Shown piece by piece: positions 9,235 to 54,807 of a stretch of DNA of 64,000 bases. The position numbers and the translations under genes are program-made. The DNA lies in the sequence record KJ190158; one strand, given 5' to 3'. The notes beneath the pieces were generated by a model. The model was not told the DNA's origin, did not search any database, and saw only the letters and a program-made list of their open reading frames with translations. Source of the DNA: Escherichia phage FFH2. Every line of letters begins with the position of its first letter. Position 1 is the stretch's first letter.

Positions 9235-10323
9235 ATGGCTGTATTTAATGCTGAGAACACCGCTCATAAAACTGGTGACTATCCGCTGTTTCTAGGACAG
9301 CAAATGGGTATGTACGACTCTATCAACAAAAAATATCCACAACTGTTTGAACTATACAAAAAACAAAAAGAACAAGACTGGGCAGAGGATGAAGTGGATT
9401 TGTCGCAATCTATTTCAGATTTTGTAACATGCTCCAAGTCAACTTATGATGTGATGGTGCAGACCTTGATGTGGCAATGGGAGGCTGATAGCGTTGCGGC
9501 AAGATCGATCATCTGCCTCTTTTCACCATTCATCACTAATAGTGAGCTTTTCACTCTATTGATGAAACAGTCAGAGATTGAAGTTCTTCACGCACTAACT
9601 TACTCAGAGATTGTTAGACAATGCCTCCCCAATGCCCGTGAGATTATAGAAGAGATTCAGGAAAACCAAAACGTTCTGAGCAGATCTGGCGTTATTGTCA
9701 AATACATGCAAGAGCTTGAGGTTATTGGTGCAAAATACCGACTGGATCCTTCTAGTGTTAAAGAAGATATTGTGCGGAAATGCATTCTTAGAGCGCTTTT
9801 TGCACTTTTAGCCCTGGAAAGTATTGAGTTTATTGCAAGTTTTGCATGCACTTTCGCAGTAGCTGAACAGGGTATTTTTGTTCAGGTGGCGCAGCTTGTT
9901 CAAAAAATCATGCTTGACGAAATGCTACACTCGAAAGGTGATTTTGCCATCATTGATATCCTGCTTAATGATCCGGCATGGGAGAAAAGCTTCCTTGAGA
10001 TAAAAGGGGAGTTAAAAGAGATTCTTGATGAAGTACGAACCAAAGAGTACGGTTGGAGTGACTATATTTTCAGCGAAGGAAGAGCGATTATAGGTCTTAA
10101 CTCACCGTTGCTTAAAGAATGGGTTGACTATAACTGCTCACCAATTTATGATTACTATGGCATCGACAAAGACTTTGTGCCGCCAACAAAGGACCCTCTA
10201 CCGTTTATGCAGGTGTGGATGAAACCTTCATTGCAACAGACGGCGAACCAAGAAATGTCGAACACTGACTACCGCGTCAACACAACTGTTAACGACGCTG
10301 AAGAAGAAATTTGGGAGTTTTAA
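9235..10323 (+). CDS. nrdB: Ribonucleotide reductase class Ia small subunit
   Basis: 362 aa directly downstream of nrdA, R2-like length and composition. Confidence 0.8.
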   Translation: MAVFNAENTAHKTGDYPLFLGQQMGMYDSINKKYPQLFELYKKQKEQDWAEDEVDLSQSISDFVTCSKSTYDVMVQTLMWQWEADSVAARSIICLFSPFITNSELFTLLMKQSEIEVLHALTYSEIVRQCLPNAREIIEEIQENQNVLSRSGVIVKYMQELEVIGAKYRLDPSSVKEDIVRKCILRALFALLALESIEFIASFACTFAVAEQGIFVQVAQLVQKIMLDEMLHSKGDFAIIDILLNDPAWEKSFLEIKGELKEILDEVRTKEYGWSDYIFSEGRAIIGLNSPLLKEWVDYNCSPIYDYYGIDKDFVPPTKDPLPFMQVWMKPSLQQTANQEMSNTDYRVNTTVNDAEEEIWEF

Positions 10324-10326
10324 TAT

Positions 10327-10605
10327 ATGAGCTGTGAAAAATCTTTTTTCTTTATTATTTACGGTAAAGATAACTGCCCACATTGTGTAAGAGCAAAAGA
10401 ATTTGCAGTCAGTAAGGGTCTGCCTTTTGTATATAAGACACTTGGCGAGGGTTACACAAAAGAAGAGCTTATTGAGAAGTGCAGTCCAATCGTACCCAGA
10501 ACGTTGCCGCAGATCTTCTTAGAAAGTAATCTTGAAAGTGTCCATATAGGCGGTGCCGACGATTTCATCTCTTTTGTTAAAAATGGTTTTGGAGAGAAAA
10601 AGTGA
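10327..10605 (+). CDS. Glutaredoxin/thioredoxin-like redoxin
   Basis: CPHC redox motif in a 92-aa protein inside the nrd cluster. Confidence 0.7.
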   Translation: MSCEKSFFFIIYGKDNCPHCVRAKEFAVSKGLPFVYKTLGEGYTKEELIEKCSPIVPRTLPQIFLESNLESVHIGGADDFISFVKNGFGEKK

Positions 10606-11462
10606 AAGTTGTAAAACGGGACGGTAGAGAAGAGTTCTATAACGGAATTAAGGTGATCAAGGCGGCAGAGTCCGCCTTACTTGAGTCTGGACATACTGAA
10701 GAAGAAGCTTACCGGATCGCCTGCGCGGTTAATGAAGTTGTTGCTAACAATCTACCAACCGACCAGTGCACGATCTCTGTAAAAAATATCCATATCCTTG
10801 TTGAAGACGCTCTTATGGATATGGGTTTAAAATGTGCAGCCAGAGAATACATCCAGTATAGGCAGACAAGAGATAATAACAGAGAGGCAGGTGGAAAACT
10901 GCTTGCAGATATTAGTGGCTTCTTGGATCGCACTTGTGATGAATTTACAAAAGAAAACGCAAATAAGCCTACCAATCATGTACACACTCATCGTGACCTG
11001 CTTGCAGGCATCCTTAGCAAACACCTTGCATCAACACAGATCCTGACAGACCGTGTCTCAGAAGAGCACAATAAAGGCTTCATCCATGTGCATGATCTTG
11101 ACTACTTGATCAGTCCGTTAACAAACTGTTGTTTGGTAAATTATCCAGATATGTTGGAAAACGGATTCAACATTGGTAACGCCCATGTCAGTAAGCCGAA
11201 GTCAATAGGGGTTGCAACAACAATCCTTAGCCAAATCTCTAGTGCAGTAGCTAGTGCTCAATATGGAGGTCAGACTATGAGCCATATTGATCATTATCTG
11301 GCACAGTATGCTGAAGCGACCTATGAGAAGAACCTTAAATTTTGCCAGGAACATTGGTTGCCAGATGCTGAGACTGTTGCAATGCAAATGACAGATAAAG
11401 ACGTATTTGACAGCATGCAGACTTTGCTCTATCAAATCAATACGTTAACCTCTGTCAACGGT
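10602..11462 (+). CDS. nrdD: Anaerobic ribonucleotide reductase NrdD, exon 1
   Basis: ATP-cone VVKRDGREE; ends ...NTLTSVNG matching NrdD ...NTLHTANG before conserved QTPF. Confidence 0.8.
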
Positions 11463-12260
11463 TAACAAACTGGCCGTTGTAAAACTCTCCTAACCTCATA
11501 AGAGGGGTCGGTAAATCCGGCTAACGGGGAACGCTAAGGCGAAAGCTATGCCAATCCCGTGACTAGTTCTTACAGGAGTTGGAACGGTTGTAACGACTAA
11601 CGAAAGGCAGAGATGCTTGACAAACATTTCTGAACCAAGTAGTGTAGAGGTTAGTTGAAATACTAACTTCGAAATGGAGAGGCTCTATGAAAAAGATCAT
11701 TCTTAATGGTGAAGAATCAAACTATGTGATTGATGAGGTTGGAAACGTATACGGAAAACGTGGAATGCTACACCCAATATTGTGGGGAGGTTATGGAAAA
11801 GGTAACAAGCATGTTAAACGCCGTTATATGTACTCTTTCAACCACAAAGGTAAAAAGATTCGAATCCAAACCTCAAGGATTGTTGCCTTGTATTGTTTGC
11901 CAGATGTCCCAGAAGACCCTGAAAACTGGGAAGTGAATCATAAAGACGGCAATACATTGAATGATCATCCGTCTAACCTAGAGTGGGTTTTGCCGGAAGA
12001 TAATAAGAGACATGCTTTCCGAACAGGGCTTTGCCCAGGCAAGTGCTATAGGAAAGTGCAGGCATACAAAGGGAAAACCTTGGTGGGTGAATATCCTTCA
12101 CTCTATGCCTGTGCAAAAGCCTTAAATTTGAACGTAGGTAACGTTCATAGGGCTATCGAAGGAAATGCCGAAGGTAAGCATCTCACAATAAAGGGTTATT
12201 ATCTTATTGAAGTAGAGTAAGAGATAGTCTGGCCCTGTGGAAACACAGGGGAGGAGACAG
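11463..12260 (+). mobile_element. Group I intron interrupting nrdD, carrying an HNH homing endonuclease ORF
   Basis: Exon 1 ends on U, insert ends on G, splicing restores in-frame NGQTPF; P7-like gactag/tagtc pair; in-frame stop at intron start. Confidence 0.7.
11687..12220 (+). CDS. HNH homing endonuclease (intron-encoded)
   Basis: EVNHKDGNTLNDHPSNLEWV HNH motif; ggagagg RBS. Confidence 0.75.
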   Translation: MKKIILNGEESNYVIDEVGNVYGKRGMLHPILWGGYGKGNKHVKRRYMYSFNHKGKKIRIQTSRIVALYCLPDVPEDPENWEVNHKDGNTLNDHPSNLEWVLPEDNKRHAFRTGLCPGKCYRKVQAYKGKTLVGEYPSLYACAKALNLNVGNVHRAIEGNAEGKHLTIKGYYLIEVE

Positions 12261-13523
12261 CAGACTCCATTCATCACATTAAGTTTAGGACTGGATACCT
12301 CGGTCTTTGGTAGAATGATTACCAAAAATTACTTGAAAGTCCACAAAATGGGTCTTGGTGAAGAACGTATCACACCTGTGTTCCCTAAAGTGCTGTTCTT
12401 CCTAGAAGAGGGTGTCAACATGAACCCTGGAGATCCTAACTATGATTTGAAAAGATTGGCTCTGGAATGCTCTGCAGAGCGGATTTATCCTGACTTTGTT
12501 TCTGTTCCACTAAATCGTAAAGTGACAGGCTCGACAGATGGTAAAGTAACGAGCATGGGTTGCCGGAGTTTTCTTAGCAAATACAATGACTTGGAAACAG
12601 GCGAGGAGAAATACCTTGGCAGATTTAACTTAGGCGTTGTTAGCCTTAACCTGCCAATGATTGCGGCAAAAGCTAAAACGGAAGGTGTTGATTTCTTTGC
12701 AGTTCTTGACGAATACTTGGATCTTGCATACGAGGCTCACCTTGTAAGGGTTAACCGTCTAAAAGGAACAAAGGCAGGGCAGAACCCTATCATGTGGTGT
12801 GAAGGCGCTCTTGCTCGCCTGGATCCTGAAGAGAGTATTGATAAACTCTTCTATGACGGGTACGCTTCCATCAGTATTGGGTATATTGGTGTGTATGAAA
12901 CCTGTCAGATTTTGGGCAGAGAGGGTGACAAGGCTTTAGCTCTTGGAATCCTTCAGCACATGAAAGATGCTTGTGAGCGATATAAGAAGGAAAGTGGACT
13001 AGCATTTAGCTTGTACGGCACCCCTTCTGAGAGTTTATGCTATAAAGCTGCAACCTGTCTGGATCGTGAATATCCAGAAGTGTTGAAGCACGAGCATGAA
13101 TACCTCACCAACAGTTTCCATCAGCCAGTATGGATCAATAGTTCACCTTTTGATAAGTGGAAGTATGAAGAAGGTTTTGCTATGATCTCTTCTGGTGGCA
13201 ACATTGGATATATAGAGACACCTAACCTGAAAAACAACCTGGATGCTTTAGAGGCTCTTGTTGACTTCGGGTATAAACACATTATGTATTTTGGTATTAA
13301 CCAACCTGTGGATAAATGTCTCAAGTGTGGTTTCTCTGGTGAGTTCAGTGCAACAGCTAAAGGCTTTGTATGCCCAGAGTGTGGAAACCATGAAGAGGGA
13401 ACGATCAGTGTAATTCGACGTGTGTCCGGATACCTTTCCAGTCCTAACTCCCGTCCTTACAATAAAGGTAAGCAAGCGGAAGTTATCGAGCGAGTTAAGC
13501 ACTATGGAAGTTGTAGTTGCTGA
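12261..13523 (+). CDS. nrdD: Anaerobic ribonucleotide reductase NrdD, exon 2
   Basis: Begins QTPFITL; C-terminal Zn-ribbon CLKCG..CPECG and glycyl-radical motif RRVSGYL. Confidence 0.8.
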   Translation, partial: QTPFITLSLGLDTSVFGRMITKNYLKVHKMGLGEERITPVFPKVLFFLEEGVNMNPGDPNYDLKRLALECSAERIYPDFVSVPLNRKVTGSTDGKVTSMGCRSFLSKYNDLETGEEKYLGRFNLGVVSLNLPMIAAKAKTEGVDFFAVLDEYLDLAYEAHLVRVNRLKGTKAGQNPIMWCEGALARLDPEESIDKLFYDGYASISIGYIGVYETCQILGREGDKALALGILQHMKDACERYKKESGLAFSLYGTPSESLCYKAATCLDREYPEVLKHEHEYLTNSFHQPVWINSSPFDKWKYEEGFAMISSGGNIGYIETPNLKNNLDALEALVDFGYKHIMYFGINQPVDKCLKCGFSGEFSATAKGFVCPECGNHEEGTISVIRRVSGYLSSPNSRPYNKGKQAEVIERVKHYGSCSC

Positions 13524-13526
13524 TAC

Positions 13527-13556
13527 TTGACAAAAGCTACAAGGATGTGGCATATT
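13527..13556 (+). promoter_or_regulatory. sigma70-type promoter TTGACA-N18-CATATT with TG extended -10
   Basis: Consensus -35 and extended -10 between nrdD and downstream small ORF. Confidence 0.45.
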
Positions 13557-13586
13557 ATTGACACACAGTGAGCTAGGAGGTACAGT

Positions 13587-13703
13587 ATGTCTACAGGTAT
13601 TTATAAAATTTGCAAGTGTGGTTGTCGTTGCAATCTTCGTTGGTGCAAGGCACTGGACGATTTTATTTGGCATTGCCCTAAATGTGATGCGGAGTATCTA
13701 TGA
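13587..13703 (+). CDS. Small Cys-rich protein (38 aa), putative zinc ribbon
   Basis: aggagg RBS then ATG; MSTGIYKICKCGCRCNLRWCKALDDFIWHCPKCDAEYL; stop overlaps nrdG ATG. Confidence 0.4.
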   Translation: MSTGIYKICKCGCRCNLRWCKALDDFIWHCPKCDAEYL

Positions 13704-14173
13704 ACATTGCCGGATACACAGAAATATCTTACACCGAAGGACCAGGTATTAGAACTGCCTTATGGGTATCTGGGTGCCCACACGCTTGCCCTGGTTGCTT
13801 TAATCAGGCATTTTGGTCAAAAGATAAGGGGAGAGAGTTTACTGAAGAAGATTTGCAAAAAATCTTGTCAGATTTAGATAACCCGTCTGTGTGCGGTATC
13901 TCTCTGCTGGGTGGAGAACCATTAGCATACTATAATGAGCCAGATATTATTAGCCTGATGGAGAAAATTAAGGAAAAATTTGGTGACAAGAAAACTATTC
14001 TTGTATATACTGGGTTCACATTTGACCATATCTCTAGTGATGTTCTTAAACTGGCTGATATCATCATTGACGGTAAGTATGTAAAAGATTTACCAACCAA
14101 GAAACCGTTCCGAGGTAGCGATAACCAAAGAATGTTTAAAAAAGTAGCAGGCGGTTGGGTTCAGGTAGACTAG
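13700..14173 (+). CDS. nrdG: Anaerobic RNR activating enzyme (radical SAM)
   Basis: CPHACPGC radical-SAM cluster motif; follows nrdD. Confidence 0.8.
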   Translation: MNIAGYTEISYTEGPGIRTALWVSGCPHACPGCFNQAFWSKDKGREFTEEDLQKILSDLDNPSVCGISLLGGEPLAYYNEPDIISLMEKIKEKFGDKKTILVYTGFTFDHISSDVLKLADIIIDGKYVKDLPTKKPFRGSDNQRMFKKVAGGWVQVD

Positions 14174-51186: not shown

Positions 51187-51540
51187 TTAGTGACAATCAC
51201 CCCAATTACGACCACACAAGTATTCACCTGTGATCTGGAACGGGACTCCCATCATTTTAGAAGCTTGCCAGAAGCAATGTACCACCATTTCGCCCACAGG
51301 ACTCCAGATAAGTTCAAGCTTTCCGTCATCGTTCAAGATAGGATCGTACACCGTGTTTCCGTCTCTGTCAACCACTTCGTTTCCGTCCTCATCCTTGCGT
51401 GCCTTTTTGTACTTATGACCGTCGAACACATGAAGTTTGGCCTCCTGCTCTGCCTTAAATGCTTCCAGTTCTTCGATTGTGTCGAAGGTGTACACAGTCT
51501 TATACTTCGGTGTGTCAGGGACTTGAAGCTGATATTCATC
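51187..51540 (-). CDS. DNA polymerase family A, exon 2 (C-terminal, begins DE of motif C)
   Basis: Begins DEYQLQV completing YYH-DE; ends GRNWGDCH like T7 pol terminal GPNWAICH. Confidence 0.75.
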   Translation of the reverse strand, partial: DEYQLQVPDTPKYKTVYTFDTIEELEAFKAEQEAKLHVFDGHKYKKARKDEDGNEVVDRDGNTVYDPILNDDGKLELIWSPVGEMVVHCFWQASKMMGVPFQITGEYLCGRNWGDCH

Positions 51541-52383
51541 CATCTGTTCAGGTAGGTCGTTAAGCTACCCCGCACCATTACGTGCATAGCCATACAGTTT
51601 CCTGTATGGATCGGACTACCTCACTGCCTTGGTAACAAGGCACCTCCCATTTCGACCGCACTTGCTGGCCTACTCTACTCGCTTCTTCACACCAACCTAT
51701 GTTGGAGCTATGCTTTCGATAGTCTCTGAACGTTACTACCAGGTGTAGTTTTTAGAGATATGTTTCCACTGTCTTCTTTGCTTTATAGCCCTGACGGTCT
51801 CATAAGGATATCCAAGATCCCTAATCTCGCATTGTCGTAGACCACTCTGCAACAGTTCGCAAATCTCTATTACCTCATCTTCTGTCAGCACAGCGTTAGC
51901 ATTATACTCACCAACTGGCCTTACTCTGAGGTCATTATCATAGGCGTGCTTGATATTTCCACCAGGGGTGGTCCATTCTAGGTTCCAGTATGCATTGTTG
52001 TACTTATTCCCATCCTTATGGTTCACCCATGTGAGTCTTTCAGGATCTGGGTTTGATACAAAGCATTCAGCAACCAGGTGGTGGACACCTTTTGTGCACT
52101 GCTTCCCCTCGATTAGCATGGTTACGCAAAGGTAACCTCTACCATTATCAAAACAAAACATTGTTGTATGATCACGTTTCGATAAAGGTATTGTTCCATC
52201 ATCAAACACGGTATACCCGTGATAATCAGCTGTTCTAGCCATTTTAACTACACCCCTTTAGTCTTCGCTGCGGATTAGCATATTGAGCTTTTACCATACT
52301 CAGGTGTAAAAGTCAACTTAGCTTCCCCGTCAATTAAAGAGGTTATTCGACATAGATTACTCTATGAAGCCACAATGTTATTT
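51541..52383 (-). mobile_element. Group I intron in DNA polymerase gene, carrying an HNH homing endonuclease ORF
   Basis: Insert splits HDE motif; exon 1 ends on U, insert ends on G; agacta/tagtc P7-like pair in 195-nt 3' core. Confidence 0.7.
51736..52242 (-). CDS. HNH homing endonuclease (intron-encoded)
   Basis: VNHKDGNKYNNAYWNLEWTTPGGNIKH HNH motif; RBS aaagggg. Confidence 0.7.
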   Translation of the reverse strand: MARTADYHGYTVFDDGTIPLSKRDHTTMFCFDNGRGYLCVTMLIEGKQCTKGVHHLVAECFVSNPDPERLTWVNHKDGNKYNNAYWNLEWTTPGGNIKHAYDNDLRVRPVGEYNANAVLTEDEVIEICELLQSGLRQCEIRDLGYPYETVRAIKQRRQWKHISKNYTW

Positions 52384-54807
52384 ATGGTAATAAATAATAC
52401 GACGAACACCTTCATCGTACCACCCACGCTTCACCATTTGGTGGTGCATGAGTATCCCAACTAAGTCACACAACGATGCACCACCATTTTGTTGGTATGC
52501 ATTAAGTAAAGAGTGTTTAGATCGGGTCCAGATGGCATGACCATCAAAAGAGTAGATAAACTTCTTACCCGTTGCTTCCCAGAATTTCTCCAGATCCTCT
52601 TTACGGCCCTTAAGACCAGGGTTGGCATCCCAAAGCGCATCGATTACCCTTTGTCCCAACTCTGGAGAGATGTCCAGCATATCTGCAACTTTATCTTTTT
52701 GTGCCCCGTACATAACCCCATACGTGATAGGTTTACCGTCGTTACGGGACACCTCTCTGCCTGCTACTTTTGTATATGCCTCAGCATTGTTTTGGTGTGC
52801 GTCTCCGTTACTTACAACATCATAATACAAGCCGTTGTCGAACTCAAAGGCACCCCAAGCCCCGATAAGCTGCTCTAAGTTGGACCCGTCAATACCGATC
52901 TCAAAGTATCCAGGAGGAACACCCCACAGACTACGCATCTCTTTACCCATAACCACTTTAGGAGATGGTTTAGGCATGTTTGCACAAATACTGTGTTTCT
53001 GTCTGGAAGTGTTTGTTAATCCAGAGCTTTTAGCAGGAAGCTTATGGTCAATCTTCAAACGTGGGTGATTAAGAAGACCAGTGTCAACCTTATCCTCCTT
53101 GATTGGATCAAGTACCGATCTGCGGTTTCGCAATGATAACCATAAGACGATATCTTTAGCCATCTCTCCGTTCAATTTTTCAAGATTCGGACACAGGTGT
53201 CCAAACGTATCTTTCAGTTGCGGAGAAGTAATAAGTGCCCTAGCTTTTCTACGTATTTTCCCGAATACTTCCTTTTTAATCCTTTCGGAGTTAGGAAAGC
53301 TTCGGAACTTGTGCACTGTTGTCTGAAACTTAGCATCAGTTTTGTTCCAGAAGTTGATAATTAGGTCACAATACTCTGACTCTAAAAGCTCGTCCATGTA
53401 TGCATATACTCGTGCATCAACATCTGCATCAGGTAGAGCTTTCTTCTTGCTGTCTTTAGTTACATCCTTAGTTCTCCACATTGTCGGAAGCCAACCAGCA
53501 CTGATCAGGTATCGCTTAATGTCGTCCTGATTGCTGATTTTCATAGGTATCTTGCAGTCAGGCATTCGCTTCTGCTGCAGATCGCTTATTGCCTGATCCA
53601 TCAGCTCTTTAGGCAAAGGTTGTGGTGTGGAGGTGCCCTTAATATAGCCTCTCAAGAAATCAGCCATCTTATCGTGGTCTTTGCAGCCCATCTCTTCACA
53701 CCATTTTATCCCCATTTTACTGACATCTCCTGTGGAGGTAAATGCTCGCTTAGGTGGGGCTTTGAACTCTAAAGCGCTCATGTCTACAGGATAGCCAAGC
53801 TTATCTTTTAACCATTTCCAACCATTATTGGAGATTGTCCCATCTTGGTTAAACGGCTTTTCAGGGAACTTGGGCCGCTGAGACATTGACAGCTCTTTTA
53901 AAGGTAGTTGTGGTTCAACACGATCAGCTATTTCTTTCATCCACGCATCGCAACGGTCACGTAAAGCAATAGCCCCGTCTATGTCGAAATACACACCCTG
54001 ACGGGCCTGCAGCTCCATCAGGAAGTGCTGCAGCATGCCTCGACGTAGTGCGTTCTTCCAGGTGATCTTCTTGAACCCTTTCGGCTTCTCTTTGGCTGGA
54101 TCGTACATAAAGTTCTGCATGTCAGATTTGCCGTAGAATACACCTTTTGATTCCGCTACCAGCTCTTTCCAGAGCAGCTCCTGGATGATAACGTCCTCGA
54201 ATACACGATCCACATACTTCCACAACGGAAGATCGCGCCAGTCATCAATTTGAACTTTCTGGTTACCAAGGGCGTAGCCCCATGCCATAAGGCCGTGAGG
54301 ACCAACAGGCTGCATTTTCTTAGTAACCGGGTTGAATACAGAGTCCGGACAACCTTTTGGTAAAGGGCGATCAGGCCACAAGATTCGGCTCATCGCCAAC
54401 GTATCAAACAGGTTAACCTGGTGGTCGTTGATAGTCCCCATACATTTAGGATCACGGAACATATCAAAATGAATACCGGATAATCTCTCCATCAGCATAA
54501 AGTCATAACTGTAGCAGTTATGGCAGTTCAAAGCTGTTGGTGACCAGTCGGAATTGCCTGTAAGCCAACCCTCCAACTCCGAAAAATCTGCTATGCGAAC
54601 TTCAAAATCCTTATAAAGAGTTTTCTTTGCCAGAATAAAGTTCTTAGCCTTCTCTATATCCTCCTCGGAGTAGTGTGTGCGGTCATTTAGAGGAAGGAAC
54701 AGCATAAAACGGTTCTTATTCAGCTCTTTAAACAGGCCGCAATGATAATAAAGATCTGGGTCTTCCAAAAGCCCTGAGGCCTCCAGATCGAAGCACCAAT
54801 TACTCAT
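52384..54807 (-). CDS. DNA polymerase family A, exon 1 (3'-5' exo and polymerase motifs A/B)
   Basis: Exo I CFDLEASG; motif B KPITYGVMYGAQ; region QQNGGASLCDLVGIL..KRGWYDEG aligns with T7 pol just upstream of HDE. Confidence 0.8.

Follow-up and report, generated by a model that had tools for sequence, protein, structure and literature searches.

The reading frame of the anaerobic ribonucleotide reductase gene nrdD in Escherichia phage FFH2 (sequence record KJ190158) stops inside a conserved block and resumes 798 nucleotides (nt) further on, and the segment in between carries an open reading frame (ORF) of its own. This raises the question of what kind of element has divided the gene, and whether one protein or two are made from it. 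The window that we analysed is a 64,000-nt stretch of this rV5-like coliphage of the genus Vequintavirus, in which positions 10602-13523 match the genomes of WalterGehring, rV5_ev146, nomo and other Escherichia phages with 97-98% identity. A first-pass annotation, made from the sequence without database searches, had read the insert as a group I intron in which an HNH homing endonuclease is encoded. Our analysis bears this out: with a probability of roughly 0.92, the segment 11463-12260 is a mobile intron of group I, its core IA2-like and related to that of td, which carries an HNH homing endonuclease gene and interrupts the Vequintavirus nrdD. The evidence consists of an exact insertion, an ORF-less allele at the same site, a P1-P10 core with compensatory changes, a U at position -1 and selection on the ORF.

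An exact insertion in nrdD

Exon 1 ends in ...NTLTSVNG with the codons AAC GGU, U11462 being the base at the 5' splice site, and is followed directly by TAA (11463-11465). The frame opens again at 12261 with QTPFITLSLGLDTS, and the Pfam NRDD profile is divided between the two parts, exon 1 covering its positions 1-154 and exon 2 its positions 156-562. Removal of 11463-12260 gives a coding sequence (CDS) of 2124 nt and a protein of 707 amino acids (aa) with the junction ...SVNG/QTPF... (a slash marks the junction), so the in-frame NGQTPF claimed in the first-pass annotation is indeed restored. At the RNA level the predicted ligated junction reads ...GTCAACGGT/CAGACTCCA.... The same length and register are found in the intronless nrdD of five phages (rV5, BP9, LL12, DrSchubert and ECP32), and excision thus recovers an intact host gene. 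A synthetic 400-nt spliced junction gave one unbroken match in intronless vequintaviruses at 96-99% identity (BP9 99.0%, typing phage 14 98.3%, rV5 98.0%), an agreement well outside what chance would give. Since the flanking bases differ at each boundary, the limits of the segment are unambiguously 11463-12260.

The spliced 707-aa protein was aligned to NrdD, a check suggested with the original annotation, and matched T4 NrdD (PDB 1H78) in a single stretch over residues 103-701 (E=1.7e-167); it also matches the 734-aa NrdD 9D3X across residues 1-703. The insert is preceded by U and ends in G, as had been noted (U11462 and omega-G12260), and the ORF-less allele described below is likewise terminated by G. 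The earlier coordinates 11463, 12261 and 11687-12220 agree to the base with the sequence and the ORF list.

Both exons are under purifying selection. Between FFH2 and EI-SP-GF, both of which carry the HNH gene, 138 codons of nrdD differ and 12 of these differences alter the amino acid. Similar ratios were obtained against the ORF-less and intronless nrdD alleles, and no internal stops were present; FV3, whose exon 2 contains a 3-nt indel, and WalterGehring were left out of the synonymous and non-synonymous counts.

Three alleles at the insertion site

Three allelic states occur at this position among 119 vequintavirus records: about 79 are intronless, 14 (AlexBoehm, nom, bov10K2, CM1 and others) have a 257-nt intron without an ORF, and 26 have the 798-nt intron with the HNH gene. 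These counts come from BLAST tables and include a few RefSeq/GenBank duplicates, the intronless figure being obtained by subtraction. The 798-nt element lies at the identical nrdD site in WalterGehring (MZ501111), FV3 (JQ031132), slur16, nomo and EI-SP-GF with 97.4-99.5% identity; these copies differ only by a few point changes and a 1-nt indel after P9, and their HNH proteins are 98.9-100% identical. The ORF-less intron is 86% identical to the 798-nt form over its first 139 nt, from P1 to the 5' strand of P7, and agrees with it in the J8/7-P7-P9 segment and in the U at -1. It differs in having no endonuclease gene, a short P8 hairpin, a P7.1/P7.2 region of unrelated sequence and an exon 2 that starts with CAA instead of CAG, which makes for a weaker P10.

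The last base of exon 1 is strictly tied to the presence of the insert. It is U (GGT) in seven of seven intron-bearing alleles (FFH2, WalterGehring, FV3, EI-SP-GF, JEP1, AlexBoehm and nom) and G (GGG) in five of five intronless ones, both codons specifying Gly. Across the junction the codons are GGG/CAA in the intronless allele, GGT/CAA with the ORF-less intron and GGT/CAG with the HNH intron, all of these differences being synonymous. A U at -1 is a requirement of the P1 helix of group I introns, and a synonymous difference linked to the allele in this manner would be hard to account for except by that requirement. The GGG/GGT and CAA/CAG differences might also alter recognition by the endonuclease.

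The intron is better conserved than the gene that it interrupts: it is 97.4-99.5% identical among phages, such as FV3 and EI-SP-GF, in which the identity of the nrdD exons to those of FFH2 is only 92-96%. An element moving horizontally within the population would be expected to leave such a pattern. The polymorphism at one site, the higher conservation of the intron and the purifying selection on its ORF are indirect signs that the intron may home.

Nineteen records named 'Campylobacter phage' (host C. jejuni; for example C2, A147 and A141) are more than 90% identical to 10602-13523 and vary in the same way for the intron, as though their host had been mislabelled or the records contaminated.

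Structure of the ribozyme core

The helices of the core were placed by hand and their complementarity was checked by script (Table 1). P3-P8, P4-P6, the P7 pseudoknot and J8/7 are all present, and P1 has the U·G wobble at the splice site (U11462·G11473); the Rfam alignment of the ORF-less allele puts P1 at the corresponding place. P7 pairs GACUA 11595-11599 with UAGUC 12225-12229 at five of five positions, a motif also found in T4 nrdD, and in the ORF-less allele its 5' strand aligns to the Rfam consensus AaAGACUA with high posterior. The P7-like pair proposed earlier, gactag with tagtc, is right in its 3' strand (UAGUC 12225-12229); gactag at 11561-11566 lies at the start of P6, and the 5' partner is more likely the GACUA in AACGACUAAC, a motif which T4 td and T4 nrdD also have. 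For the J8/7-P7-P9 segment, the alignment with the Rfam consensus (AAGAUAUAGUCu...P9) had posterior '*'.

Table 1. Features of the nrdD locus of phage FFH2 and its neighbourhood (positions in the 64,000-nt window; hpA and hpB, the two J3/4 hairpins; MFE, minimum free energy)
Feature	Coordinates	Strand	Description	Basis
nrdD exon 1	10602..11462	+	287 codons, GTG start; ATP-cone and first part of NrdD barrel	ORF list, Pfam
Intron	11463..12260	+	798 nt; UAA (in-frame stop) first, omega-G12260 last	absent from intronless alleles; sub-threshold Rfam Intron_gpI
nrdD exon 2	12261..13523	+	420 codons and stop; barrel remainder, glycyl-radical domain, Zn ribbon	Pfam NRDD, Gly_radical
HNH homing endonuclease gene	11687..12220	+	177 aa, I-HmuI-like, ATG start	Pfam, PHROG, PDB
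P1	11456..11479	+	exon CAACGGU 11456-11462 and intron UA 11463-11464 pair with guide UGGCCGUUG 11471-11479, 9/9
P10	11470-11472 with 12261-12263	+	CUG with exon-2 CAG; 3 bp, possible pairing
P3 5' strand	11485..11490	+	CUCUCC pairs with GGAGAG 11676-11681, 6/6
J3/4 hairpins	11494..11521	+	hpA CCUC/GAGG 11494-11505; hpB GUCGG/CCGGC 11507-11521
P4, P5, P5a	11524..11560	+	P4 ACGGGG/UCCCGU; with a GAAA tetraloop
P6 hairpin	11566..11585	+	GUUCUUAC/GUUGGAAC, 7/8 pairs
P7 5' strand	11594..11599	+	in GUAACGACUAAC; pairs with UAGUC(UG) 12225-12231; presumed guanosine-binding site
P7.1	11608-11632	+	CAGAGAUG/CAUUUCUG, 8/8 pairs	recovered in MFE fold
P7.2	11648-11669	+	AGGUUAGU/ACUAACUU, 8/8 pairs	recovered in MFE fold
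P3 3' strand	11676..11682	+	GGAGAG(G); also Shine-Dalgarno sequence of HNH ORF, 4 nt before AUG
P8 5' strand	11682..11688	+	GCUCUAU including AU of start codon; pairs with GUAGAGU 12212-12218, 7/7
J8/7, P7 3' strand, P9	12219..12250	+	AAGAGA; UAGUC 12225-12229; CCCUGUG-GAAA-CACAGGG 12233-12250
nrdB	9235-10323		first gene of local order	Pfam, ORF list
Glutaredoxin gene	10327-10605		between nrdB and nrdD	Pfam, ORF list
Small ORF			between nrdD and nrdG	Pfam, ORF list
nrdG	13700-14173		last gene of local order	Pfam, ORF list

The pairing is maintained through compensatory changes. Between the two intron forms, double changes were seen in P1, P3, hpB, P6 and P9. In AlexBoehm the outermost C-G pair of P1 has become A-U, with one change on the exon side and one on the guide side; P3 reads CUCUGC/GCAGGG, a C-G to G-C double change; hpA and hpB covary as CCUUA/UGAGG and GUCAGC/GCUGGC; P6 is GCUUCAC/GUGAGGC with seven of seven pairs; and a C-G pair of P9 is replaced by U-A. 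A short P8 hairpin stands at the corresponding position of this allele. In Bacillus phage S4-2 and two IMG/VR contigs the strands of P3, P8 and P9 are entirely different yet complementary. Overall, covariation is seen in P3, P6, P8 and P9. Even among the five copies with the HNH gene, three of the few substitutions in the RNA regions exchange one standard pair for another: G11682·U12218 is A-U in FV3, U12236-A12247 is U·G in EI-SP-GF, and at A11648-U11669 the four copies other than that of FFH2 have G·U. P4 is invariant across 31 relatives and near-identical to P4 of T4 td and nrdD, and P3 aligns with the T4 nrdD P3 AUCUGCC.

Unconstrained MFE folds recover P3, both J3/4 hairpins, P4-P6, P8 and P9. 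The natural 257-nt allele has an MFE of -86.1 kcal/mol (z=-3.4), and none of 200 shuffled sequences folded as well. For the FFH2 intron with the interior of the ORF replaced by a GAAA tetraloop, an artificial construct which favours P8, z was -4.9. Hairpins of the P7.1/P7.2 kind are typical peripheral elements of subgroup IA; here they lie between P7 and the 3' strand of P3, and P4 (ACGGGG/UCCCGU) and AACGACUA are as in T4. We therefore describe the core as IA2-like and of the T4 td type, the choice of IA2 over other IA classes being made by resemblance and without a curated classifier.

The HNH protein encoded in the intron

The ORF reported at 11687-12220 in the first-pass annotation does encode an HNH protein of 177 aa. 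It matched Pfam HNH_3 with 29.3 bits (cut-off 24.8) and PHROG 59, an HNH endonuclease family, with E=1.5e-26, and residues 8-160 could be aligned to residues 8-159 of the 174-aa I-HmuI (PDB 1U3E; E=2.7e-4, 23.8 bits). The HNH motif residues H85 and N106 are kept. For the C-terminal DNA-binding module (NUMOD/HTH) expected beside the catalytic motif of an enzyme encoded in an intron loop, the match lay below its cut-off (I-HmuI_NUMOD-like, 18.4 bits against 27). The closest homologues outside the genus are about 30-38% identical and are found in many phage groups. Among five copies of the ORF, 19 of the 21 variable sites fall at third codon positions, there are no frameshifts and the two replacements are conservative, which indicates ongoing selection for the HNH protein.

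The whole ORF forms the loop of P8, and a sigma-70 promoter scan found no promoter-like site within the intron. Its Shine-Dalgarno sequence is also the 3' strand of P3, and the AU of its AUG is paired in P8, so that folding of the ribozyme should be in competition with translation of the endonuclease. From this anatomy, the folded ribozyme should occlude the translation start and a translating ribosome should disrupt the core. Intron ORFs which overlap core sequence and whose expression is tightly controlled are a known theme (PMC3984707).

The I-HmuI ORF lies in P8 of its intron within the gene for the DNA polymerase of Bacillus phage SPO1. That intron is likewise of group I and encodes an HNH enzyme of about 175 aa with a NUMOD-type module, although the host gene and phage lineage differ and the protein match is weak.

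Proposed route of splicing and homing

Taken together, these features suggest the following sequence of events. Transcription of nrdD would run through the intron, and the RNA would fold into P1-P9 with the guide 11471-11479 paired to the end of exon 1 and U11462 opposite G11473. An exogenous guanosine bound in P7 would then attack after U11462, and the freed 3'-OH would attack after omega-G12260, possibly aided by the 3-bp P10 (CUG 11470-2 with CAG 12261-3). Ligation of the exons as ...AAC GGU/CAG ACU... would yield the 707-aa NrdD. In a mixed infection, the enzyme would nick or cut an intronless nrdD near GGG/CAA, and repair from an intron-bearing genome would copy the intron in. Homing initiated by a nick has been documented for SPO1 and SP82, in work cited in PMC3984707.

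Rfam detection and the J3/4 hairpins

Several observations weigh against this interpretation. Splicing, the activity and target of the endonuclease, and homing are steps that we infer from sequence. The Rfam group I covariance model, which had been named as a check, did not reach its curated threshold: at the gathering score of 50 bits RF00028 had no match in the whole window. In a permissive search it gave 27.7 bits for the 798-nt intron (E=7e-5 on a 931-nt stretch, 0.005 on the whole 64,000 nt) and 29.8 bits for the ORF-less allele, against 105.3 bits for the T4 nrdD intron. The alignment of the 798-nt intron was confident only for J8/7-P7-P9, its 5' half being misaligned into the HNH ORF. 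When 31 related 5' domains were aligned automatically with MAFFT, hairpins of variable length were out of register and RNAalifold retrieved no helix but P4/P5; the covariation rests on a handful of sequences aligned by hand. In the HNH protein, the position of I-HmuI Asp74, which we take to be a metal ligand, is occupied by Asn84, so that endonuclease activity is not guaranteed.

The low RF00028 score is likely due to an insertion of about 35 nt in J3/4, together with P7.1/P7.2 and the ORF; the ORF-less allele does align with the model from end to end. When the intron is aligned with that of T4 nrdD, AAAACUCUCC-UAA stands opposite the T4 AAAAUCUGCC-UAA (P3 and the start of J3/4), and is followed by about 35 additional bases, folded into two hairpins, ahead of AACGGGG at P4; these hairpins have no counterpart in T4 nrdD. 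Scanning gave the form '...GCU/AACGGGG' in 73 of 133 td-like P4 cores among the matches listed, most of them from an IMG/VR pattern scan, and on folding a stem ended beside GC in 59 of the 65 distinct cases of this form among the matches listed. The RF00028 threshold was reached by none of 12 loci with the module and by two of eight loci without it, a comparison confounded by ORFs and incomplete loci.

Loci with the two-hairpin J3/4 module comprise 11494-11521 in FFH2, the loci L001, L006, L008 and L009, and about 70 IMG/VR loci among the matches listed. Bacillus phage S4-2 and the IMG/VR contigs (L006, L008, L009) share the order P3-[G/U]AA-hpA-hpB-GCUAA-P4, a near-identical P4-P5a (GCUAAGNCGAAAG), the motifs AACGACUA and GAUAUAGUC, and an HNH or GIY-YIG ORF. 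They differ from the FFH2 intron in host gene, in the sequence of the peripheral helices and in the place of the ORF, which is in the P6 loop and not in P8. In the literature we found no description of, or name for, such a 'P3.1/P3.2' module. It is conceivable, if on balance doubtful, that td-like phage introns with these hairpins constitute a large lineage, possibly an undescribed structural subclass, which the RF00028 threshold systematically misses and in which the overlap of the Shine-Dalgarno sequence and AUG with the core makes folding and translation mutually exclusive. If so, many split phage genes would have been annotated as fragments. In any case, scanning with Rfam at the gathering threshold misses the type of intron found here in nrdD.

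Contig L008, which also carries a related intron, has a match to the type II hammerhead ribozyme at 13592-13660 (38.7 bits, threshold 37) near a tRNA cluster.

Alternative explanations

The alternative that survives best accepts a functional intron and holds that the HNH ORF is not, or is no longer, its homing enzyme, being either a passenger without activity or a nuclease directed at a different target which entered the P8 loop of an intron that was already there without an ORF. The ORF-less intron at the same site, with its diverged P7.1-P8, agrees with the entry of an endonuclease gene into an older intron; the Asn in place of I-HmuI Asp74 and the low identity (only about 32%) of the closest homologues outside the vequintaviruses point the same way. 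We nevertheless consider this unlikely. The third-position bias and intact frames of the five copies show continuing selection for the protein, its HNH His and Asn residues are kept, and the conservation of intron and ORF beyond that of the flanking exons fits a recent spread driven by the endonuclease.

It could also be argued that the insert is a decayed relic which can no longer splice and that nrdD is a pseudogene, tolerable because the phage encodes a class Ia NrdAB. NrdB is encoded just upstream of nrdD, with NrdA next to it in the annotation of related records; phages grown aerobically in the laboratory may not need nrdD; and both the low Rfam score and the unusual J3/4 insertion could be taken as signs of decay. 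However, both exons have kept an open frame, and comparison of intron-bearing lineages shows strong purifying selection on them (12 amino acid changes in 138 differing codons), the core helices have kept their pairing through compensatory changes, and the fold is more stable than those of shuffled sequences. The J3/4 module is present in about half of the td-like phage introns among the matches listed, and being so widespread it is a trait of the lineage and not a mark of decay. We regard a relic as very improbable.

A free-standing HNH insertion, finally, could have split nrdD into two separately translated polypeptides that reassemble without splicing, as in the nrdA/mobE arrangement of Aeromonas phage Aeh1. 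Aeh1 nrdA is proof that functional phage ribonucleotide reductase genes can be split and unspliced (PMC3653736), many GenBank records give the nrdD halves as separate CDSs, and RF00028 offers no match at the gathering level. Yet at 12261 and in its vicinity exon 2 lacks any start codon served by a ribosome-binding site, and the sole in-frame upstream start, GTG at 12237, lies inside P9 and has no Shine-Dalgarno sequence. The 257-nt variant without an ORF occupies exactly the same site, and a free-standing endonuclease insertion cannot explain it. The sequences on either side of the ORF make up a complete ribozyme core that shows covariation, and the U at -1 goes strictly with the insert. We give this explanation scarcely any credence. 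An intein is ruled out by the TAA immediately at 11463 and the lack of an open frame through the insert, and a group II intron by its small size and the absence of a reverse transcriptase or maturase. A mobile group I intron with its own homing endonuclease gene thus remains the interpretation that we prefer.

Related introns in phage genes

The parallel with the T4 nrdD (sunY) intron drawn in the first-pass annotation holds for the kind of element, a group I intron in the same gene; the insertion site, endonuclease family, position of the ORF and J3/4 module are all different. The T4 intron likewise has an IA-type core and interrupts the same conserved block ...NTL..S.NGQTPF, and it shares the P3-UAA, P4 ACGGG, AACGACUA and GAUAUAGUCUG motifs and the in-frame stop just inside the intron. 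Its site, however, lies in the Tyr codon of ...AYEY/EVNTLFSSNGQTPF, before EVNTL, which is 32 nt upstream of the equivalent of NG/QTPF. We located this site by searching the T4 gene with the spliced NrdD (tblastn) and inspecting the junction; 538/539 is the sole position with U at -1, a terminal G, an intron of 1033 nt and an open frame, and is a reasoned assignment, not a database value. The T4 endonuclease is the GIY-YIG enzyme I-TevII, whose ORF starts downstream of P9, whereas an HNH enzyme is encoded in P8 here. The T4 intron is without the two-hairpin J3/4 module and scores 105 bits with RF00028, against 28 bits for the FFH2 intron.

In JEP1, phita32 and 'Campylobacter phage' C2, nrdD has a second intron, whose HNH gene is a different one and which is independent of both the T4-site and the 798-nt introns. 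In JEP1 (L002, 3468-4217) it splits the conserved MGCRS/F loop, which corresponds to 12569/12570 in FFH2, and scores 32.9 bits with Rfam Intron_gpI; at this MGCRS/F site FFH2 has no intron. The region downstream of nrdD also varies. WalterGehring has a free-standing 'putative homing endonuclease' between nrdD and the small downstream ORF (L003, 4459-5451) and JEP1 a hypothetical-protein gene in the same interval (L002, 5251-6186); FFH2 has only a short intergenic stretch at about 13524-13587, with two sigma-70-like promoter matches and no extra gene.

Another group I intron candidate, of 843 nt, was noticed in the FFH2 window at 51541-52383 on the minus strand, in a gene for a family A DNA polymerase. 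The first exon of that gene (54807..52384) ends in ...IIYYH, and its reading frame is taken up again at 51540 as DEYQLQVPD, so that the H/DE motif is divided. The insert is preceded by U and ends in G, and its 168-aa ORF (52242..51736) contains an HNH-like motif, VNHKDGN...NLEW; no Pfam match at E<=0.001 was found for this ORF. The match of the insert to Rfam Intron_gpI is weak (26.8 bits, E=0.009 on the whole 64,000 nt).

Annotation and significance

The nrdD intron is not new, and is an ordinary selfish element already present in public phage records. Mobile group I introns have been known in phage ribonucleotide reductase genes since T4. In the FV3 record (2012) an HNH homing endonuclease is annotated between two nrdD ORFs, and the BASEL GenBank records (2021) give nrdD as a two-exon join and the ORF as a putative homing endonuclease. 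The BASEL paper set intron boundaries by comparative annotation (PMC8594841); the rV5 paper mentions only terminase introns, and the LL12 note only terminase and DNA polymerase introns. In the literature we found no paper describing the nrdD intron of rV5 or Vequintavirus, or demonstrating its splicing or homing.

The conceptual gain from this intron is therefore small. Its value for annotation is that two 'NrdD fragments' and a 'hypothetical protein' become one spliced CDS, join(10602..11462,12261..13523), and an intron-encoded HNH endonuclease. For the biology of these phages, a single site shows, across the genus, each of the three stages of the homing cycle, namely the empty site, the ORF-less intron and the intron with its endonuclease gene, and nrdD of T4 and that of the vequintaviruses have acquired introns independently at places only a few dozen nucleotides apart.

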